Assembly: GCA_964568755.1 (NCBI GenBank) | Contig: CAZMRX010000001.1 | Span: 1-52,808, forward strand | DNA from: an uncultured Acidobacteriota bacterium | GTDB taxonomy: Bacteria; Acidobacteriota; Vicinamibacteria; Fen-336 | Direction: 5' to 3' | DNA length: 52,808 nt | Shown here: piece after piece, positions 46,823-52,808 of the stretch | Position numbering within the stretch: the first letter of the stretch is position 1 | Layout: each line of letters starts with the position of its first letter | Notes under the pieces: model-generated | What the model was told of the DNA's origin: nothing | Seen by the model: only the letters and a program-made list of their open reading frames with translations | The model's database searches: none | Made by a program: the position numbers and the translations under genes

Positions 46823-47965
46823 ATGGACTTCCTGGCGCCGGTCGATCCGGAGGAGGCACGGCTCCGGCCTACGTACGTCACCGTCAGCCTGTCGCGGCTC
46901 CGGACCAACCTCGCCGCCGTCAAGGCACACGTCGGCGGTGCGAAGGTGATGGCCGTCCTCAAGGCCAACGCCTACGGCCACGGCCTCGAGGCGGTGGCCC
47001 GCTGCCTCGCGCCCCAGGCCGACGCCTTCGGCGTGGCGCTGGTGGAAGAAGGCATCGCGCTGCGGGCGCTCGGGATCGAGAGCCCGATCCTGGTGATGGG
47101 CGGGATCTGGACGCGCCAGATCCCGCTCTTCCTCGAGCACCGCCTGACGTTCACGGTTCCTTCGCTCGCGCGGCTCGCCGACATCGAGCAGGCGGCCGCG
47201 GCCCACGGCCGCAAGGCGCGCGTCCACCTCAAGATCGACACCGGCATGGAGCGCATCGGCATCCACCATTACAGCGCCGCGCCGCTGCTCGAGGCGGCCG
47301 CGCGCTCACCGCACGTCGAGGTCGAGGGCATCTACTCGCACTTCGCCAATGCCGATGCCGAGGACCTCGCCTCGACGCGCCTGCAGCTCGAGCGATTCCT
47401 CGAAGTGCTGCGCTTCTACGAGCGCCGCTCGCTGCCGCCTCCGCAGCGGCACATCGCCAACTCCTCGGCGCTGCTGCGCCTGCCCGAGACGCACCTCGAC
47501 ATGGTGCGCCCGGGGATCCTGCTCTACGGCGTCTACCCGTTCCAGGCGGCCGCGCGCGCGATCGAGGTCCAGCCCGCGCTCACGTGGCGCTCGCGGGTCG
47601 TCTACTTCAAGGTCGTGGAGCCCGAGAGCCCCGTCTCGTACGGGTCCACCTGGAAGAGCGACCACCGCGTGCGCCTGGTCACGGTGCCGGTCGGCTACGG
47701 CGACGGCTACTTCCGCGCCCTCTCGAACCGCGCCTTCGTCGTTCTTCGCGGCCGGCGCCACCCGCAGGTGGGCCGCGTGTGCATGGACCAGATGATGGTC
47801 AACATCGAGTGGAACGAGGCCTGGAACGGGGACGACGTGGTGCTGATCGGCGAGCAGGACGGCGCCCGCGTGACGGTCGAGGAGCTGGCCGAGTGGGCCG
47901 GAACCGTGCCCTGGGAGATCCTGGCCGCGATCAGCGCGCGGGTGCCACGGATCTACGAACGCTAA
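46823..47965 (+). CDS. alr: Alanine racemase
   Basis: 380 aa. PLP-lysine motif VMAVLKANAYGHG and C-terminal VGYGDGY...GRVCMDQ. Confidence 0.9.
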   Translation: MDFLAPVDPEEARLRPTYVTVSLSRLRTNLAAVKAHVGGAKVMAVLKANAYGHGLEAVARCLAPQADAFGVALVEEGIALRALGIESPILVMGGIWTRQIPLFLEHRLTFTVPSLARLADIEQAAAAHGRKARVHLKIDTGMERIGIHHYSAAPLLEAAARSPHVEVEGIYSHFANADAEDLASTRLQLERFLEVLRFYERRSLPPPQRHIANSSALLRLPETHLDMVRPGILLYGVYPFQAAARAIEVQPALTWRSRVVYFKVVEPESPVSYGSTWKSDHRVRLVTVPVGYGDGYFRALSNRAFVVLRGRRHPQVGRVCMDQMMVNIEWNEAWNGDDVVLIGEQDGARVTVEELAEWAGTVPWEILAAISARVPRIYER

Positions 47966-47974
47966 GCCCGGGGG

Positions 47975-48003
47975 TCTGGGGGGCGGCTTCGGAGCCCCCC
48001 AGG
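47975..48003 (+). terminator. Strong G:C hairpin with C(UUCG)G tip immediately after alr; no U-tract
   Basis: TCTGGGGGGC...GCCCCCCAGG forms a stem of about 9 bp around GGC-TTCG-GA, 10 nt after the alr TAA. The missing T-run makes the terminator function uncertain. Confidence 0.35.
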
Positions 48004-48057
48004 TCCGTGGCTCGTCCGTCGCTCCCCAGCCTGAGCCGAAGGACCCCCGCGTTGGTC

Positions 48058-48086
48058 TTGACGGCGCGGGGGACGGTCCATATACT
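48058..48086 (+). promoter_or_regulatory. Sigma70-like promoter TTGACG-17 nt-TATACT
   Basis: The -35 is TTGACG (48058-48063), followed by a 17-nt spacer and the -10 TATACT (48081-48086). A near-consensus pair is unexpected in this GC-rich DNA. Caveat: the -35 also lies in the loop of a possible 8-bp hairpin (48044-51 / 48065-72). Confidence 0.5.
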
Positions 48087-48092
48087 CCGGCA

Positions 48093-48260
48093 TCATGCTT
48101 CGGTCGGTCCAGATCGCTGCTCGAAAGCGGGCCACTCGAAAGTGCACGAGTCGCTTAGGCGGCGGTGTGGCCCTGTGCCCCTAGCAGAACCAAGCACAGA
48201 GAATCGCAACCACCCGAACCCGCCGCAGCGGCCGCAGCCGCCGGCGGGTTTCGTGCTTTT
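48093..48260 (+). promoter_or_regulatory. Structured leader / possible cis-regulatory RNA upstream of asd-lysC-dapBAD (class unknown)
   Basis: About 125 nt with several local helices, then an intrinsic terminator, then SD and ATG of asd. Helices: 48116-23 / 48147-54 enclosing CACU[CGAA]AGUG; GUCGC[UUAG]GCGGC; and a duplicated CTCGAAAG 8-mer at 48120 and 48135. Classic attenuator or riboswitch layout. Confidence 0.4.
48218..48260 (+). terminator. Intrinsic terminator-like hairpin plus interrupted U-tract, 30 nt before the asd start codon
   Basis: ACCCGCCG..GCGG[CCGCAG]CCGC.CGGCGGGT forms a stem of about 12 G:C-rich bp, followed by TTTCGTGCTTTTC. Upstream GGCGGCGG (48159-66) can pair alternatively with the 5' arm CCGCCGC (48220-26). 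Confidence 0.55.
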
Positions 48261-48290
48261 CGGGGTCTTTGACGCGGGAACGGAGACGAG

Positions 48291-49343
48291 ATGGGCAAGC
48301 GGATCGAGGTCGGGGTGCTGGGCGCGACCGGGATGGTCGGCCAGCAGTTCATCCAGCAGCTGGCAGGGCATCCCTGGTTCGAGCTGACCTGGCTCGCGGC
48401 CAGCGAGCGTTCGGAGGGCAAGAGCTACGCCGACGCGGCCCCCTGGCGCCTCGAAACGCCGATGCCCGAGGGCATCGGCAGCCGAACCGTCGAGGCGTGT
48501 ACGCCGGGCAAGGGCCCGCGGCTCGTGTTCTCGGCGCTCGACGCCGGCGTCGCGGGCGAGCTCGAGCAGGCGTTCGCCGACGCCGGGCACGTGGTGCTGA
48601 GCAACGCGCGCAACCACCGCATGGACCCGGTGGTGCCGCTGCTGGTGCCGGAGGTGAACGCCGAGCACCTCGCCCTGCTGCGCGCGCAGGCGAAGCGACG
48701 CGGCGGCAAGCCGGGTGCGATCGTCACCAACCCCAACTGCTCGACAGTGGTGCTCTCGATGGCGCTCGCGCCGCTGCGGGCCTTCGGCCTGCGCTCCTGC
48801 CTGGTGAGCACGATGCAGGCCGTCTCCGGCGCGGGCTACCCGGGCGTGCCCTCGCTCGACATCCTCGGCAACGTGATCCCGTTCATCTCCGGCGAAGAGG
48901 AGAAGATCGAGACCGAGACGCGCAAGATCCTCGGCGCCCTCTCGGGCGAGACGGTCGAGCCCCATCCTGTGCGCGTGAGCGCGCACACCAACCGCGTGCC
49001 GGTGGTGGACGGTCACACCGAGACGGTCTCGGTCGCGCTCGACGACAAGCCGACCCAGGCGGCGCTGCGCGCGGCGATCGAGGGCTTCAGCGGGCTGCCG
49101 CAGCGGCACGGCCTGCCGTCGGCGCCGGAGCGGCCGCTCGTCTACCTCGAGCAGCCGAATCGTCCGCAGCCGCGCTTCGACGCCTCGCGCGGACGCGGCA
49201 TGACGGTGTCGGTCGGCCGGCTGCGTCCGTGCGGGGTGCTCGACTGGAAGTTCGTGGCGCTCGGCCACAACACGGTGCGCGGGGCGGCGGGCGCGTCGGT
49301 GCTCAACGCCGAGCTGATGCAGGCCGAGGGCCTGCTCGACTAG
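48291..49343 (+). CDS. asd: Aspartate-semialdehyde dehydrogenase
   Basis: 350 aa. Contains [12 protein letters not shown], the active-site motif NPNCST and the C-terminal [10 protein letters not shown]. Confidence 0.9.
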
Positions 49344-49353
49344 GAGGCTGGCC

Positions 49354-50742
49354 TTGATCGTCATGAAGTTCGGCGGCACCTCGGTCCAGGACCCCGAGGC
49401 CGTGTCGCGCGTGGTTCAGGTGGTCGCCGGCGAGACGCGGCCGCGGCTGGTCGTCGTTTCCGCGCTCGCGCGCGTGACGGACGCGCTGCTGGAGGTGGTC
49501 CGCCTCGCCGAGCGCGGCGATGCGACGGCGGCCCGCGACGCCGTCCGCGCGCTGCGCCTGCGCCACGAGCAGATGACGACGCTCGTGCGCCAGCCGGAGC
49601 GCCGCGCGGAGCTGCTCGCGGCGCTCGACGCCGTCTTCGCGGAGGTCGAGGCGGTGGCCACCGCGCTGGCCGTGGTGCGTGAGGTGTCGCCGCGCTCCTG
49701 CGACGCGCTCGTCGCCGCGGGCGAGCTCGCCAGCTCCCGCATCGTGGCCGCGGCGCTCGCCGAGGCGGGAGTCCCCTCGCGCTTCGTCGACGCTCGCGAG
49801 CTGCTGGTCACCGACGCGGCGCACGGCGCGGCGGCGCCCGATCGCGCCGCCACCGACGAGCGGCTGCGTGCGCGCGTGCGCCCGCTGCTGGAGCAAGGTG
49901 TCGTCGGGGTCACCGGCGGCTTCGTGGGCGCGACCGCCGCCGGGATCACCACCACGCTCGGGCGCGGCGGCTCCGACTACTCGGCCGCGCTCTTCGGCGC
50001 GGGTCTCGAGGCCGAGGAGATCCAGATCTGGACCGACGTGGACGGGATGCTGACCGCCGACCCGCGTCTCGTGCCGGTCCCGCGCGTGGTCTCGCGGCTC
50101 AGCTTCGCCGAGGCGTCGGAGCTCGCGTACTTCGGCGCCAAGGTGCTGCACCCGAGCACGATCCTGCCCGCGGTCGGCCTCGGCATCCCGGTGCGCATCC
50201 TGAACTCGCACCGGCCGCACGCCGAGGGCACGCTGATCACGGCGGCCGCGGCCGAGGGCGTGCCGGGGCCGGTGGCGATCGCCTGCCGCCGGGGGGTGAC
50301 GCGGATCGACATCGCCTCGACCCGGATGCTGATGGCCTACGGTTTCCTGCGCCGGGTGTTCGAGGTGTTCGAGCGTTTCGAGACGCCGGTCGACGTGGTC
50401 ACGACCTCCGAGGTGAGCGTGTCGGTGACGATCGACGACCGCCACGCGATCGAGGCCATCGCGGCGGCGCTGCGCGCCTTCGCCGACGTGACGTGCGAGT
50501 CGGGAATGGCGATCCTGAGCGCCGTCGGCGAAGGACTGCGCCGCGACGCGCGTCTCGCCGCGCAGGTGATCGGCGCGCTCGAGGGCCTGCCGCTCGCGAT
50601 GGTCTCGCAAGGAGGCTCGCGCACGAACGTGACGGTCGTGCTGCCCGAGACGGACGCCACCGGCGCGATGCAGCGGCTCCACCGGCGCTTCTTCGAGCCC
50701 GAGCCCGCCGGCGCCGAAGCCGCGGCGCTCGCCACCGCCTGA
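49354..50742 (+). CDS. lysC: Aspartate kinase
   Basis: 462 aa. TTG 49354 lies 6 nt after AGGAGG; an alternative ATG is at 49363. Contains MKFGGTSV, GRGGSDYSAA and FGAKVLHP, with C-terminal ACT-like repeats. Confidence 0.9.
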   Translation: MIVMKFGGTSVQDPEAVSRVVQVVAGETRPRLVVVSALARVTDALLEVVRLAERGDATAARDAVRALRLRHEQMTTLVRQPERRAELLAALDAVFAEVEAVATALAVVREVSPRSCDALVAAGELASSRIVAAALAEAGVPSRFVDARELLVTDAAHGAAAPDRAATDERLRARVRPLLEQGVVGVTGGFVGATAAGITTTLGRGGSDYSAALFGAGLEAEEIQIWTDVDGMLTADPRLVPVPRVVSRLSFAEASELAYFGAKVLHPSTILPAVGLGIPVRILNSHRPHAEGTLITAAAAEGVPGPVAIACRRGVTRIDIASTRMLMAYGFLRRVFEVFERFETPVDVVTTSEVSVSVTIDDRHAIEAIAAALRAFADVTCESGMAILSAVGEGLRRDARLAAQVIGALEGLPLAMVSQGGSRTNVTVVLPETDATGAMQRLHRRFFEPEPAGAEAAALATA

Positions 50743-50754
50743 GGTCGAAGAGCG

Positions 50755-51447
50755 ATGCGCCTGCTGGTCGTCGGCCACGGACGGATGGGACGGCTGGTCG
50801 AGGCGCTCGCCCCCTCCTACGGCTTCGAGCTGGCCGGAGTGCTCGACAGCGCCTCGAACCCCGGCGGCCAGGGCGCCGACGCCGAGCGCTGCAAGGGCGT
50901 GGCCGTGGCCGTCGACTTCTCGACCGCCGAGGCGACGCTCGCGACGACGCCGCGACTGGCCGCGCTCGGCATCTCGCTGGTCGTGGGCACCACGGGCTTT
51001 CAGGCCCGCGAGAGCGAGCTGCGCGCCGCCGTCGAGGCGGCCGGCGTCGGCGCGGTGGTCGCGGCCAACTTCTCGCTCGGCGCGAGCGTGCTCGAGGCGC
51101 TCGGCGAGAGCGCGGGCCGGCTGCTGGCGGGCGCCGAGGCGTTCGGCGCCTACGTGCACGAGGCGCACCACCAGGCGAAGAAGGACGCCCCGTCCGGCAC
51201 GGCGCTCGCGCTGCGGCGCGCCCTCGAGCGCTCCGGCTTCCCGCGCCCGATCGACATGTCGTCGACGCGCGCCGGCTTCATTCCCGGCACGCACACGATA
51301 GGATTCGACGGTCCGGCGGAGACGCTCGAGCTCGTGCACACGGTGCGCGACCGCGCCACGTTCGCGCACGGCGCGCTCGCCGCGGCGCGCTGGGTGGTGG
51401 GACGCAGGGGCTGGTTCACGATGCGGGACGTACTGGGACTCGCTTGA
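50755..51447 (+). CDS. dapB: 4-hydroxy-tetrahydrodipicolinate reductase
   Basis: 230 aa. Contains VVGHGRMGR and the signature EAHHQAKKDAPSGTA. Confidence 0.85.
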   Translation: MRLLVVGHGRMGRLVEALAPSYGFELAGVLDSASNPGGQGADAERCKGVAVAVDFSTAEATLATTPRLAALGISLVVGTTGFQARESELRAAVEAAGVGAVVAANFSLGASVLEALGESAGRLLAGAEAFGAYVHEAHHQAKKDAPSGTALALRRALERSGFPRPIDMSSTRAGFIPGTHTIGFDGPAETLELVHTVRDRATFAHGALAAARWVVGRRGWFTMRDVLGLA

Positions 51448-51463
51448 GGCTCTAGGAGGAGCG

Positions 51464-52366
51464 ATGCGAACTCCGTTCACGGGCTGCGGGACGGCGCTGG
51501 TGACACCGTTCACGACGTCGGGAGCGGTCGACGAAGCCGCGGTGCGGCGGCTGGCGAAGCGGCAGGTCGAGGCGGGCGTCCACTTCCTGGTGCCGTGCGG
51601 CACGACCGGCGAGGCGCCCACGCTGTCGGCCGCCGAGCGCTCGCGCGTGGTGGAGATCGTGGTGGACGAGGCGCGCGGGCGCGTGCCCGTGCTCGCGGGG
51701 GCTGGGGGCTACGACACGCGCGAGGTTGTGGAAGCGGCGCGCGCGATGCAGGCGGCCGGGGCGGACGGCCTGCTCTCGGTCACGCCGTATTACAGCAAGC
51801 CGACGCCGGAGGGGCTCTACCGCCACTACGAGGCGATCGCCGCGGCCACGCCGCTGCCGATCGTCGTCTACAACGTGCCGGGGCGCACGGGCTGCAACGT
51901 CGACCCCGCGACGCTCGCGCGGCTCGCGACGATCCCCAACGTCGCGGGCGTCAAGGAGGCCTCGGGCAACATGACGCAGATCTGCGAGGTGATGCGCGCG
52001 GTGCCGCCGGAGTTCCTGGTGCTGTGCGGCGACGACGCGCTCACGCTGCCGGCGATGGCGGTGGGCGCGCGCGGCGTCGTGTCGGTGGCCTCGAACGAGC
52101 TCCCGTCCGAGATGGCGCAGCTGGTGGAGGCGGCCGAGGCCAACGACTTCGGCTTCGCGCGCGAGATCCACACGCGGCTGCTGCCGCTGATGCTCGCGAA
52201 CTTCGCCGAGTCGAACCCGATCCCGGTGAAGGCGGCGATGGCCCAGATGGGCCTGCTCGAGGAGAGCTATCGGCTGCCGATGGTGCCGCCGCGAGCCGAG
52301 ACGCGCGAGAGGCTCGCGCGCGTGCTCGCGAGCGTGCGGCCCGCGCCCGCGGCGGTCCCTGCGTGA
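51464..52366 (+). CDS. dapA: 4-hydroxy-tetrahydrodipicolinate synthase
   Basis: 300 aa with an AGGAGGA SD. Contains TALVTPF, CGTTGEAPTLS, YNVPGRTG and the Schiff-base lysine context VAGVKEASGN. Confidence 0.9.
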   Translation: MRTPFTGCGTALVTPFTTSGAVDEAAVRRLAKRQVEAGVHFLVPCGTTGEAPTLSAAERSRVVEIVVDEARGRVPVLAGAGGYDTREVVEAARAMQAAGADGLLSVTPYYSKPTPEGLYRHYEAIAAATPLPIVVYNVPGRTGCNVDPATLARLATIPNVAGVKEASGNMTQICEVMRAVPPEFLVLCGDDALTLPAMAVGARGVVSVASNELPSEMAQLVEAAEANDFGFAREIHTRLLPLMLANFAESNPIPVKAAMAQMGLLEESYRLPMVPPRAETRERLARVLASVRPAPAAVPA

Positions 52367-52808
52367 GCGAGGCGCTCGCGCCGCTGCGCGCCCGCGTCGA
52401 GCAGCTGTTCGCGGCGGGCGCCTCGGCCAGCCGGGACGAGGCGCGCGCATGCTTCGCGGAGCTGCGGGCGGCGCTCGCCCGCGGCGAGGCGCGCGCGGCG
52501 GAGCCCGACCCATCCTCCCCCACCGGCTGGCGCGTCAACGCCTGGGTCAAGCAGGGGATCCTGCTGGGCTTCCGGCACGGCGACGTCGTGGACGCCTCGA
52601 TGGATCACGGCCGGCTCCCCTTCTTCGACAAGGACACCCTGCCGCTCAAGCGCCTCGACGCGGCGGCCGGCGTGCGGATCGTCCCCGGGGGCTCGGCGGT
52701 CCGGGACGGGGCGGTCCTCGGGCGGGGCGTCGTGTGCATGCCGCCGAGGTACGTCCACGTGGGCGCCTACGTCGGATTCGTCACCACGGGAACCATCGCC
52801 TGGATCAC
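52363..52808 (+). CDS. dapD: Tetrahydrodipicolinate N-succinyltransferase, 3'-truncated by the window end
   Basis: GTG 52363 overlaps the dapA TGA (GTGA). My own translation gives ...GWRVNAWVKQGILLGFR...GVRIVPGGSAVRDGAVL...MPPRYVHVGAYV, matching the DapD N-domain and the start of the hexapeptide region. This ORF is not in the supplied track because it is open-ended. Confidence 0.7.
   Translation, partial: MSEALAPLRARVEQLFAAGASASRDEARACFAELRAALARGEARAAEPDPSSPTGWRVNAWVKQGILLGFRHGDVVDASMDHGRLPFFDKDTLPLKRLDAAAGVRIVPGGSAVRDGAVLGRGVVCMPPRYVHVGAYVGFVTTGTIAWI

Follow-up and report, generated by a model that had tools for sequence, protein, structure and literature searches.

In Escherichia coli and Salmonella, the leaders trpL, hisL, leuL, pheL, ilvL and thrL possess a short open reading frame (ORF) with codons for the product of the pathway. 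In attenuators of Proteobacteria, the helices 1:2, 2:3 and 3:4 overlap, and an intrinsic terminator is placed just before the first biosynthetic gene. To our knowledge, the bacteria studied so far control lysine biosynthesis either through the L-box riboswitch or through protein regulators. In this study, we analyzed a stretch of 52,808 nucleotides from an uncultured bacterium of the Vicinamibacteria (Acidobacteriota), hereafter called the window, in which a gap of 325 bp, read directly from the sequence, separates alr (46823-47965) from asd (48291-49343), the first gene of an asd-lysC-dapB-dapA operon. We consider it probable, with good confidence, that this gap carries a ribosome-mediated leader-peptide transcription attenuator, which is leaderless or nearly so and most likely senses lysine via the charging of lysine transfer RNA (Lys-tRNA).

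The locus shares with the proteobacterial leaders the short ORF with codons for the pathway product, the three overlapping helices and the position of the terminator. The closest among them is thrL (Thr_leader, RF00506), which controls aspartokinase I-homoserine dehydrogenase, and some clades of the present family possess thrL-like Thr/Ile runs (TIIITVTT). However, the proteobacterial ORFs are led by a Shine-Dalgarno (SD) sequence, whereas the ORF described here is leaderless or nearly so, and neither its sequence nor its covariance model resembles the leaders in Rfam. Furthermore, the codon sensed here would be that of Lys, the sense codons number only one to four and stand in a near-invariant CGA-AAG-CGN context, and the host belongs to the Acidobacteriota. 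The lysine riboswitch (L-box or LYS element, RF00168) occupies the same regulatory position and, by inference, would respond to the same signal with the same OFF logic. Unlike the riboswitch, the present element lacks a five-way junction, has a conserved core of about 8 nt and contains a conserved reading frame inside the leader. The asd RNA motif of Lactobacillales (RF01732) is likewise a conserved structured RNA upstream of asd, but our element does not match the RF01732 model. We know of no leader ORF or terminator switch in that motif.

Leaderless leader peptides have been described in Deinococcus deserti (PMC4007540), and polycysteine leaderless small ORFs (sORFs) in mycobacteria (bioRxiv 10.1101/834739). 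In the parts of these two sources considered here, transcription starts at or within a few bases of the sORF start codon and the codons match the downstream amino-acid genes, as is predicted for the asd leader. The asd leader differs from them in its phylum and has no sequence relation to them, a lysine specificity is not reported in those parts, and, set against what they describe, a covarying Rho-independent terminator/antiterminator switch is evident in the asd leader. A full-text literature search returned neither "lysine leader peptide", "lysine attenuator" or similar phrases nor anything on attenuators in Vicinamibacteria. The mechanism is classic; the format is leaderless, and the lysine specificity and the sequence family are uncatalogued.

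Searches with Rfam 15 (4227 models) detected no family at the gathering score in the whole window. With the threshold relaxed to E<=10 in the region 47900-48350, only Moco-II and v-snoRNA-1 appeared, both on the minus strand, with E values of 1.5 and 2.8; these are far below gathering and at chance level. The lysine riboswitch (RF00168) gave no match at its gathering score (30 bits) in the window and none at E<=10 in the region, which agrees with the judgement in a preliminary description of this DNA that the leader is not an L-box. Thr_leader, His_leader, the T-box and the asd motif were also without a match, in the window at gathering and in the region at E<=10. The region has no confident match to a known family. 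Its features, from promoter scans, folding and comparison with relatives, are as follows.

48058-48063, plus strand: -35 hexamer TTGACG (promoter scan; kept in loci L001 and L002)
48081-48086, plus strand: -10 hexamer TATACT (promoter scan; spacer of 17)
48095-48184, plus strand: leader ORF of 29 codons followed by TAG; its ATG is 8 nt past the -10 box, without SD, thus leaderless or nearly so
48101-48124, plus strand: region 1 (core AUCGCUG, 48113-48119), the 5' strand of helix 1:2 (duplex search, -26.8 kcal/mol; covariation)
48122-48127, plus strand: first CGA-AAG pair (Arg10-Lys11), with the AAG invariant in the alignment; proposed main stall site
48137-48142, plus strand: second CGA-AAG pair (Arg15-Lys16), found in the majority of relatives; the number of Lys codons is 1, 3 or 4 in some clades
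48149-48171, plus strand: region 2 (core GGCGGCGG, 48158-48165), partner of region 1 or region 3 (duplex search; antiterminator pair counts)
48173-48199, plus strand: hairpin P3 (CUGUGC...GCACAG), with the leader stop UAG (48182-48184) in its loop (folds; covariation)
48210-48232, plus strand: region 3, CCACC and the terminator 5' arm CCCGCCGCAGCGGC (48219-48232), alternative partner of region 2 (folds, duplex search, pair counts)
48237-48260, plus strand: region 4, the terminator 3' arm GCCGCCGGCGGG (48237-48248) and the U-rich tract UUUCGUGCUUUU (48249-48260) (fold, -24.0 kcal/mol)
48282-48293, plus strand: SD sequence GGAG (48282-48285) and asd ATG (48291) (sequence and ORF list)
48291-52366, plus strand: the operon asd-lysC-dapB-dapA, putatively under control of the element (Pfam, NCBIfam; gene order kept behind the leader in relatives)

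The preliminary description had placed five elements between alr and asd (a UUCG-tipped hairpin, a promoter, a structured segment, a terminator and the asd start), and all five were found where it had put them. Its view of the segment as a metabolite- or tRNA-sensing leader holds in so far as a regulatory leader with a conditional terminator precedes an amino-acid operon. The sensor, however, is most likely not an aptamer but the translated 29-codon ORF, which that description had missed.

To compare the element among organisms, relatives of the Asd protein were fetched with their flanking regions; almost all of them are metagenome-assembled genomes of Vicinamibacteria. In the two closest relatives, the region is kept from the -35 box onward, and the end of alr immediately adjoins the promoter. 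The arrangement recurs in more distant loci, where a TATACT box is followed after about 9 nt by a start codon, and then by a frame of 21-34 codons with CGA-AAG once or twice, a stop codon and a hairpin with U7-9. In all 58 distinct leaders, a frame of 21-34 codons with a nearby start codon surrounds the conserved AAG. A TATACT-like box is located 5-13 nt (mode 9) 5' of the leader start codon in 48 of them, and in every one of these 48 the AAG frame contains an ORF of 15-45 codons that begins 5-13 nt after the -10 box. Such an ORF was observed in only 1/48 and 2/48 for the remaining two frames. The stop codons (TAG 27, TGA 25, TAA 6) interchange at the equivalent place.

Lys was the most enriched residue of the leader peptides, at 8.2% against 1.5% in five neighbouring genes (5.6-fold), and Arg was also enriched (2.2-fold). 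Lys is present in 58/58 peptides (at least one, median two, at most four), and Lys codons were gained through insertions in L035, L029 and L050. The Arg codon on the 5' side of Lys is CGA in 89/95 cases, although CGA accounts for only 6/148 Arg codons of the neighbouring genes. Within the main clade, the first Lys codon and region 2 are 27, 30, 33, 36, 39, 48 or 60 nt apart. Divergent clades have spacings that are not multiples of three, yet the frame stays open with a different C-terminus, as expected of a leader peptide whose sequence itself is unimportant. A search of NCBIfam with the window peptide and five others, related or analogous, returned no significant match.

In some clades (L018, L028, L014, L025 and L054), the peptide carries Thr runs (MTKRTTKTTRKRTGTTR) or Thr/Ile runs, for example TIIITVTTRKR, which resembles thrL. 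Three of these loci (L014, L025 and L054, with the leader upstream of asd at about positions 2805-2975 of the locus) form a Luteitalea-like clade that combines a Thr/Ile run (TIIITVTTRKRE...) with a single RKR, and the operon is still asd-lysC-dapB-dapA. Such runs fit an operon that opens with the common enzymes of the aspartate pathway, and the codon content suggests that the Luteitalea-like leaders may sense Thr, Ile and Lys together.

The two copies of CTCGAAAG at 48120 and 48135, 15 nt apart, had previously been read as GNRA-like loops. We rejected this reading: the folds contained no stable C-GAAA-G hairpin from either copy, and both copies are in-frame CGA-AAG (Arg-Lys) codon pairs. The same repeats could instead be the binding sites of an RNA-binding regulator that recognizes CGAAAG(CG) and sets the antiterminator against the terminator, as TRAP or PyrR do. 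A short repeated motif kept at the nucleotide level, wobble position included, and situated in a loop closed by helices 1 and 2 would suit such a protein. On the other hand, the element is not linked to any candidate gene for such a regulator, the motif occurs in anything from 1 to 4 copies, and all AAG copies lie in one frame with a proper start and stop. Protein-mediated attenuation is thus very improbable in our estimation.

The element contains three mutually exclusive helices, 1:2, the antiterminator 2:3 and the terminator 3:4. In full-length folds, most leaders formed helix 1:2, a short P2 extension, hairpin P3 and the terminator. Helix 1:2 joins the 5' part of the ORF to a segment about 30 nt past the first Lys codon; on the 5' side of that codon, region 1 is within about 15 nt. 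The P2 extension brackets the Lys codons, and the P3 loop holds the stop codon. In the alternative state of the window, GGCGGCGG... pairs with CCACC...CCGCCGC; in L051, the antiterminator is a perfect 9-bp duplex, CCGUGUCGG:CCGACACGG. The overlap of 1:2 with 2:3 within region 2 is 12-22 nt among the leaders and 22 nt in the window.

Two kinds of test were applied to these helices. In an alignment-free duplex test of 27 leaders against dinucleotide shuffles, p<=0.05 was obtained for helix 1:2 in 13/27 leaders and for 2:3 in 16/27. Covariation was measured on a covariance-model alignment of the 58 distinct sequences. The OFF structure was 65% paired, against 38-44% in slid controls, with a covariation score of 0.21 against at most 0.11 in the controls, which 0/500 shuffles reached. 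Compensatory changes were found in 25 of its 34 pairs, including all 10 pairs of P3 (helix 4 of the alignment). The antiterminator 2:3, which was absent from the model used to fit the alignment, was 83% paired against 31-54% in slid controls, and again 0/500 shuffles reached this value. On a plain MAFFT alignment, RNAalifold gave almost no consensus (6 pairs), and the pair counts there were weak, because the exclusive helices cancel each other and that alignment is not structure-aware; it was replaced by the covariance-model alignment. The preliminary description had proposed a comparison of related asd upstream regions for covariation. The element is conserved in these regions, and its helices covary.

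The promoter TTGACG-17-TATACT (48058-48086), already recognized in the preliminary description, is the sole sigma-70-like site in 47800-48450, and no such site occurred in 50 shuffles. The terminator (48219-48260) is a G:C hairpin, CCCGCCGCAGCGGC-CGCA-GCCGCCGGCGGG, of -24 kcal/mol followed by UUUCGUGCUUUU, and a hairpin with a U-run, mostly U7-9, is present at this site in 27/27 curated relatives. The asd ATG follows 30 nt beyond the terminator. A second TTGACG is located just past the terminator (48268-48273); there is no -10-like hexamer at 16-18 nt from it, and it is probably not a promoter.

A promoter followed by a transcript of about 165 nt that ends at a terminator resembles a gene for a small RNA (sRNA). 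The unit could be an independent sRNA acting in trans, or a gene for a basic micro-protein, with its own terminator and with asd transcribed separately. In Sinorhizobium, attenuator-derived RNAs and leader peptides can act in trans (PMC6614838, PMC7298713). In the scan of 47800-48450, however, no second promoter was detected between the terminator and asd, where the 30-nt gap carries only the SD. A conserved antiterminator that overlaps the terminator would be useless in a stand-alone unit, and the element is linked to asd across 39 genera. A 6S-like RNA, which the preliminary description had raised on the basis of three short matches, belongs to this class of explanation. We rejected it, since 47900-48350 contained no 6S (RF00013) match at E<=10, and this genome has its true 6S RNA on another contig (C32:18572-18748, minus strand, locus L150; RF00013, 97.3 bits). 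The first of the three matches falls in an insertion specific to the window, upstream of the promoter. An independent gene or sRNA in place of the attenuator therefore seems highly improbable.

A covariance model of the element was built from 26 leaders and used for searches. The element was detected upstream of asd in 39 of 80 fetched loci. Among the sampled genomes of the class, it was found in 93/301, which represent 39/129 genera, and there was rarely more than one copy per genome. Of 29 newly fetched loci, 25 have asd directly downstream, with the gene order asd-(lysC)-dapB-dapA. The sequence conserved throughout the leader family amounts to only about 8 nt (CGAAAGCG).

The lysine riboswitch was searched for in the same genomes. 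No copy of RF00168 was found in the genome or the genus of the window, whereas the same search detected true copies in another genus and in control genomes. RF00168 exceeded the cut-off in 14 of the 301 sampled genomes, all belonging to one genus (g27, family f3) of the order of the window, and none of these 14 genomes has the leader-ORF element. Twelve of the loci were fetched (L138-L149; 61-85 bits). In 11 of them, the riboswitch is directly upstream of asd-lysC, and the twelfth is cut by a contig end. Since the riboswitch and the leader each precede asd and do not occur together in the sampled genomes, they are alternatives at the head of the same operon. This distribution suggests that the leader peptide and the L-box riboswitch have replaced one another at the asd operon.

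Because an L-box occupies the same position in the sister genus, the leader might itself be a new compact riboswitch for lysine or another metabolite. In that case, the RNA between regions 1 and 2, with the CGAAAG motifs, would bind the ligand, stabilize 1:2 and favour the terminator, and the ORF would be incidental. A P1 helix around a small conserved core, followed by an antiterminator and a terminator, would serve equally well as an OFF riboswitch, and CGAAAG is kept at the nucleotide level, the wobble A included. Against this, the 8 nt of CGAAAGCG are too little for a binding pocket, and the divergent clades have a single copy in quite different surroundings. A riboswitch also leaves unexplained the frame-specific start at a fixed distance from the -10 box, the interchange of TAG, TGA and TAA, the insertions that add Lys codons and the Thr/Ile runs. 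We regard a compact riboswitch as improbable.

The genome of the window (G000) contains further units of promoter, mini-ORF and terminator, in each of which the codons match the gene behind it. A scan that demanded a strict -10 pattern and recognized terminators by a simple T-run missed even the element of the window, whereas a scan anchored on both the -35 and -10 boxes worked. The units are listed below.

G000:C79:11317-11504 (L082, 1463-1650), plus strand: argC leader, with TTGACA-16-TATCAT, the near-leaderless ORF MLKMSAVRAAVRVRRGPCALRAESLDQA and a terminator
G000:C550 (L083, about 660-470), minus strand: metY-type leader, with TTGACA-17-TAACTT, the ORF MSIRAAAVISRQSTAMCMCMDMCIARVRVGGHGG and a terminator, before O-acetylhomoserine sulfhydrylase (metY, TIGR01326)
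G000:C12:5317-5480 and G000:C63:12547-12760, plus strand: two units with Cys codons, each with promoter, mini-ORF and terminator

The Arg-rich MLKMSAVRAAVRVRRGPCALRAESLDQA leader is directly before argC (TIGR01850, 320 bits). Its motif AVR..RVRRGP..RR is kept in 24 further genomes of the family and, in contrast to the asd leader, has no conserved Lys in these relatives. This unit is a candidate arginine attenuator. The MSIRAAAVISRQSTAMCMCMDMCIARVRVGGHGG leader carries Met and Cys codons (MCMCMDMC) and is a candidate methionine/cysteine attenuator. Of the two Cys-codon ORFs, MRPCACRFRCPEWGPVRAGAG precedes a cysteine synthase (cysKM family, E 3e-86) and MHARLMCCCSQARVTPGARVRALLDT precedes the phosphoadenylyl-sulfate reductase CysH; both resemble the polycysteine leaderless sORFs of mycobacteria. 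Beyond the codons, it is the exchange with RF00168 and these matching Arg, Met and Cys leaders from which we argue that lysine is most likely the signal of the asd leader.

The peptide itself might act as a metabolite-sensing arrest peptide of the TnaC or SpeFL kind, in which a basic R-K-R...R-K-R chain and free lysine in the exit tunnel would stall the ribosome and so set the terminator against the antiterminator. SpeFL senses ornithine, which is a related basic amino acid. The residue after Lys is Arg in 93/130 cases and is encoded by synonymous codons (CGG 61, CGC 15, CGT 9, CGA 8), which suggests some selection at the amino-acid level, and the K-R dipeptide is found in 58/58 leader peptides. 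Nevertheless, clades differ in the length of the peptide, in the distance between RKR and the stop and in the C-terminal sequence, much of the conserved part of the peptide is encoded where the RNA forms helices (regions 1 and 2, P3), and the Arg, Met and Cys leaders of the same genome follow plain codon logic. It is therefore hardly likely that the nascent chain is the sensor of lysine.

For the attenuator sensing Lys-tRNA, which we prefer, the following course can be proposed. Transcription would start a few bases past TATACT, on the AUG at 48095 or immediately 5' of it, and the leader ORF would consequently be translated from a leaderless or near-leaderless messenger RNA (mRNA), with the ribosome loading on that AUG. 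When Lys-tRNA is ample, the ribosome would pass both CGA-AAG pairs and reach the UAG in the P3 loop. Behind the ribosome, or without any ribosome, region 1 would pair with region 2. This pairing would free region 3 for region 4, the terminator would form, and RNA polymerase would stop at about 48250-48260, before asd. Under a shortage of Lys-tRNA, the ribosome would pause with the AAG at 48125-48127 in the A site, and its footprint (about 48110-48137) would cover region 1, whose core is 48113-48119. With region 1 covered, region 2 would pair with region 3, the antiterminator would block the terminator, and asd-lysC-dapB-dapA would be transcribed. CGA may act in this course as a brake that makes the decoding of the next Lys codon more sensitive.

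Several results weigh against the proposed attenuator. A leader has few Lys codons (one to four, in most cases two), fewer than its Arg codons. The near-invariant rare CGA before AAG points to a constraint at the nucleotide or codon-pair level beyond simple "hungry codon" logic. The start codon is ATG in 46 of the 58 leaders, but GTG in 6 and TTG in 6, and these 12 would be poor starts on leaderless mRNAs. When counted as independent events, indels of a multiple of three (6-7) are not clearly above the others (4) and are only suggestive. In the window itself, the duplex energies of 1:2 and 2:3 are unremarkable against shuffles (z -1.2 and -0.9) owing to the high GC content, so that the window draws its support from the comparison with relatives. 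Similarly, a strict consensus scan does not call the hairpin of the window a terminator, since the U-run is interrupted. Folds of truncated transcripts often favour the antiterminator even without a ribosome, and masking the ribosome footprint in such folds did not separate the states. As the antiterminator is often the more stable form anyway, the OFF state would depend on the kinetics of folding, and, on this analysis, the choice between terminator and antiterminator must be kinetic, as in classical attenuators.

RNA data were also considered. The window sequence was found in many activated-sludge and biofilm metagenomes and in a few metatranscriptomes. One low-depth metatranscriptome contig from a near strain spans 48051-48430, that is, the leader and the 5' part of asd, and has no strand information. 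This contig is the sole RNA evidence; it already begins 5' of the predicted transcription start and may derive from carried-over DNA.

With regard to the CGA codon, we also considered a further-reaching view, in which the near-invariant CGA-AAG-CGN (R-K-R) serves as a dedicated stall module, beyond the role of a hungry codon. Taken with the leaders for Arg, Met and Cys, it would belong to a modular system of leaderless attenuators in Vicinamibacteria, in which the sensing codons are swapped per operon. In yeast, an I:A wobble pair in the P site impairs decoding of the following codon. In one version of this view, an inosine tRNA would read the rare CGA, and the resulting I:A wobble pair in the P site may slow the decoding of the next Lys codon, so that one or two Lys codons would be enough to sense Lys-tRNA. 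In the other and bolder one, the basic nascent chain may sense free lysine inside the ribosome in the manner of an arrest peptide. We put forward the stall module and the modular system only tentatively and consider them rather unlikely.

The genes that flank the element were identified with Pfam and NCBIfam, which confirmed alr, asd, lysC, dapB and dapA. The best NCBIfam model for lysC is lysine-sensitive aspartokinase 3. The remaining features of the locus are as follows.

47970-48004, directly 3' of alr: G/C-rich hairpin with a CUUCGG tip, GGGGTCTGGGGGGCGGCTTCGGAGCCCCCCAGGTC (fold)
48291-49343, plus strand: asd
49354-50742, plus strand: lysC
50755-51447, plus strand: dapB
51464-52366, plus strand: dapA

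The operon had earlier been listed with dapD as its last gene. The partial ORF after dapA (52449-52808) showed no Pfam or NCBIfam family over its first 120 residues, and the dapD label is unconfirmed.

The hairpin GGGGTCTGGGGGGCGGCTTCGGAGCCCCCCAGGTC is present after alr, as had been noted before, but it is not a part of the leader. It belongs to a dispersed palindromic repeat, of which at least 10 further copies (94-97% identity over 33-39 nt) are found in the genome on contigs C391, C374, C287, C510, C216, C54, C310, C533, C88 and others, and many further genomic sequences share the G-run arm of the hairpin. In the window, it is held by the specific insertion 47966-48056. In the closest relatives, the hairpin is missing at this site and the alr stop abuts the -35 box. 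Thus, GGGGTCTGGGGGGCGGCTTCGGAGCCCCCCAGGTC looks like a repetitive extragenic palindromic (REP)-type element unrelated to the attenuator, and the repeat may double as the terminator of alr.

If the proposed attenuator is correct, it would add the missing lysine entry to the classical list of attenuators (trp, his, leu, phe, thr and ilv). It would also be a clean natural case in which a riboswitch and a leader peptide replace each other at one operon within a single bacterial class, and would extend leaderless attenuators to the Acidobacteriota, an abundant but little-studied phylum of soil and sludge. The fixed CGA-AAG pair offers a testable idea on how sensitive switching may be obtained from very few sense codons. 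In the annotation of these genomes, such mini-ORFs should be called leaders, and the regions should not be left blank. Most likely, the attenuator does in this organism the job that the lysine riboswitch does in the neighbouring genus.

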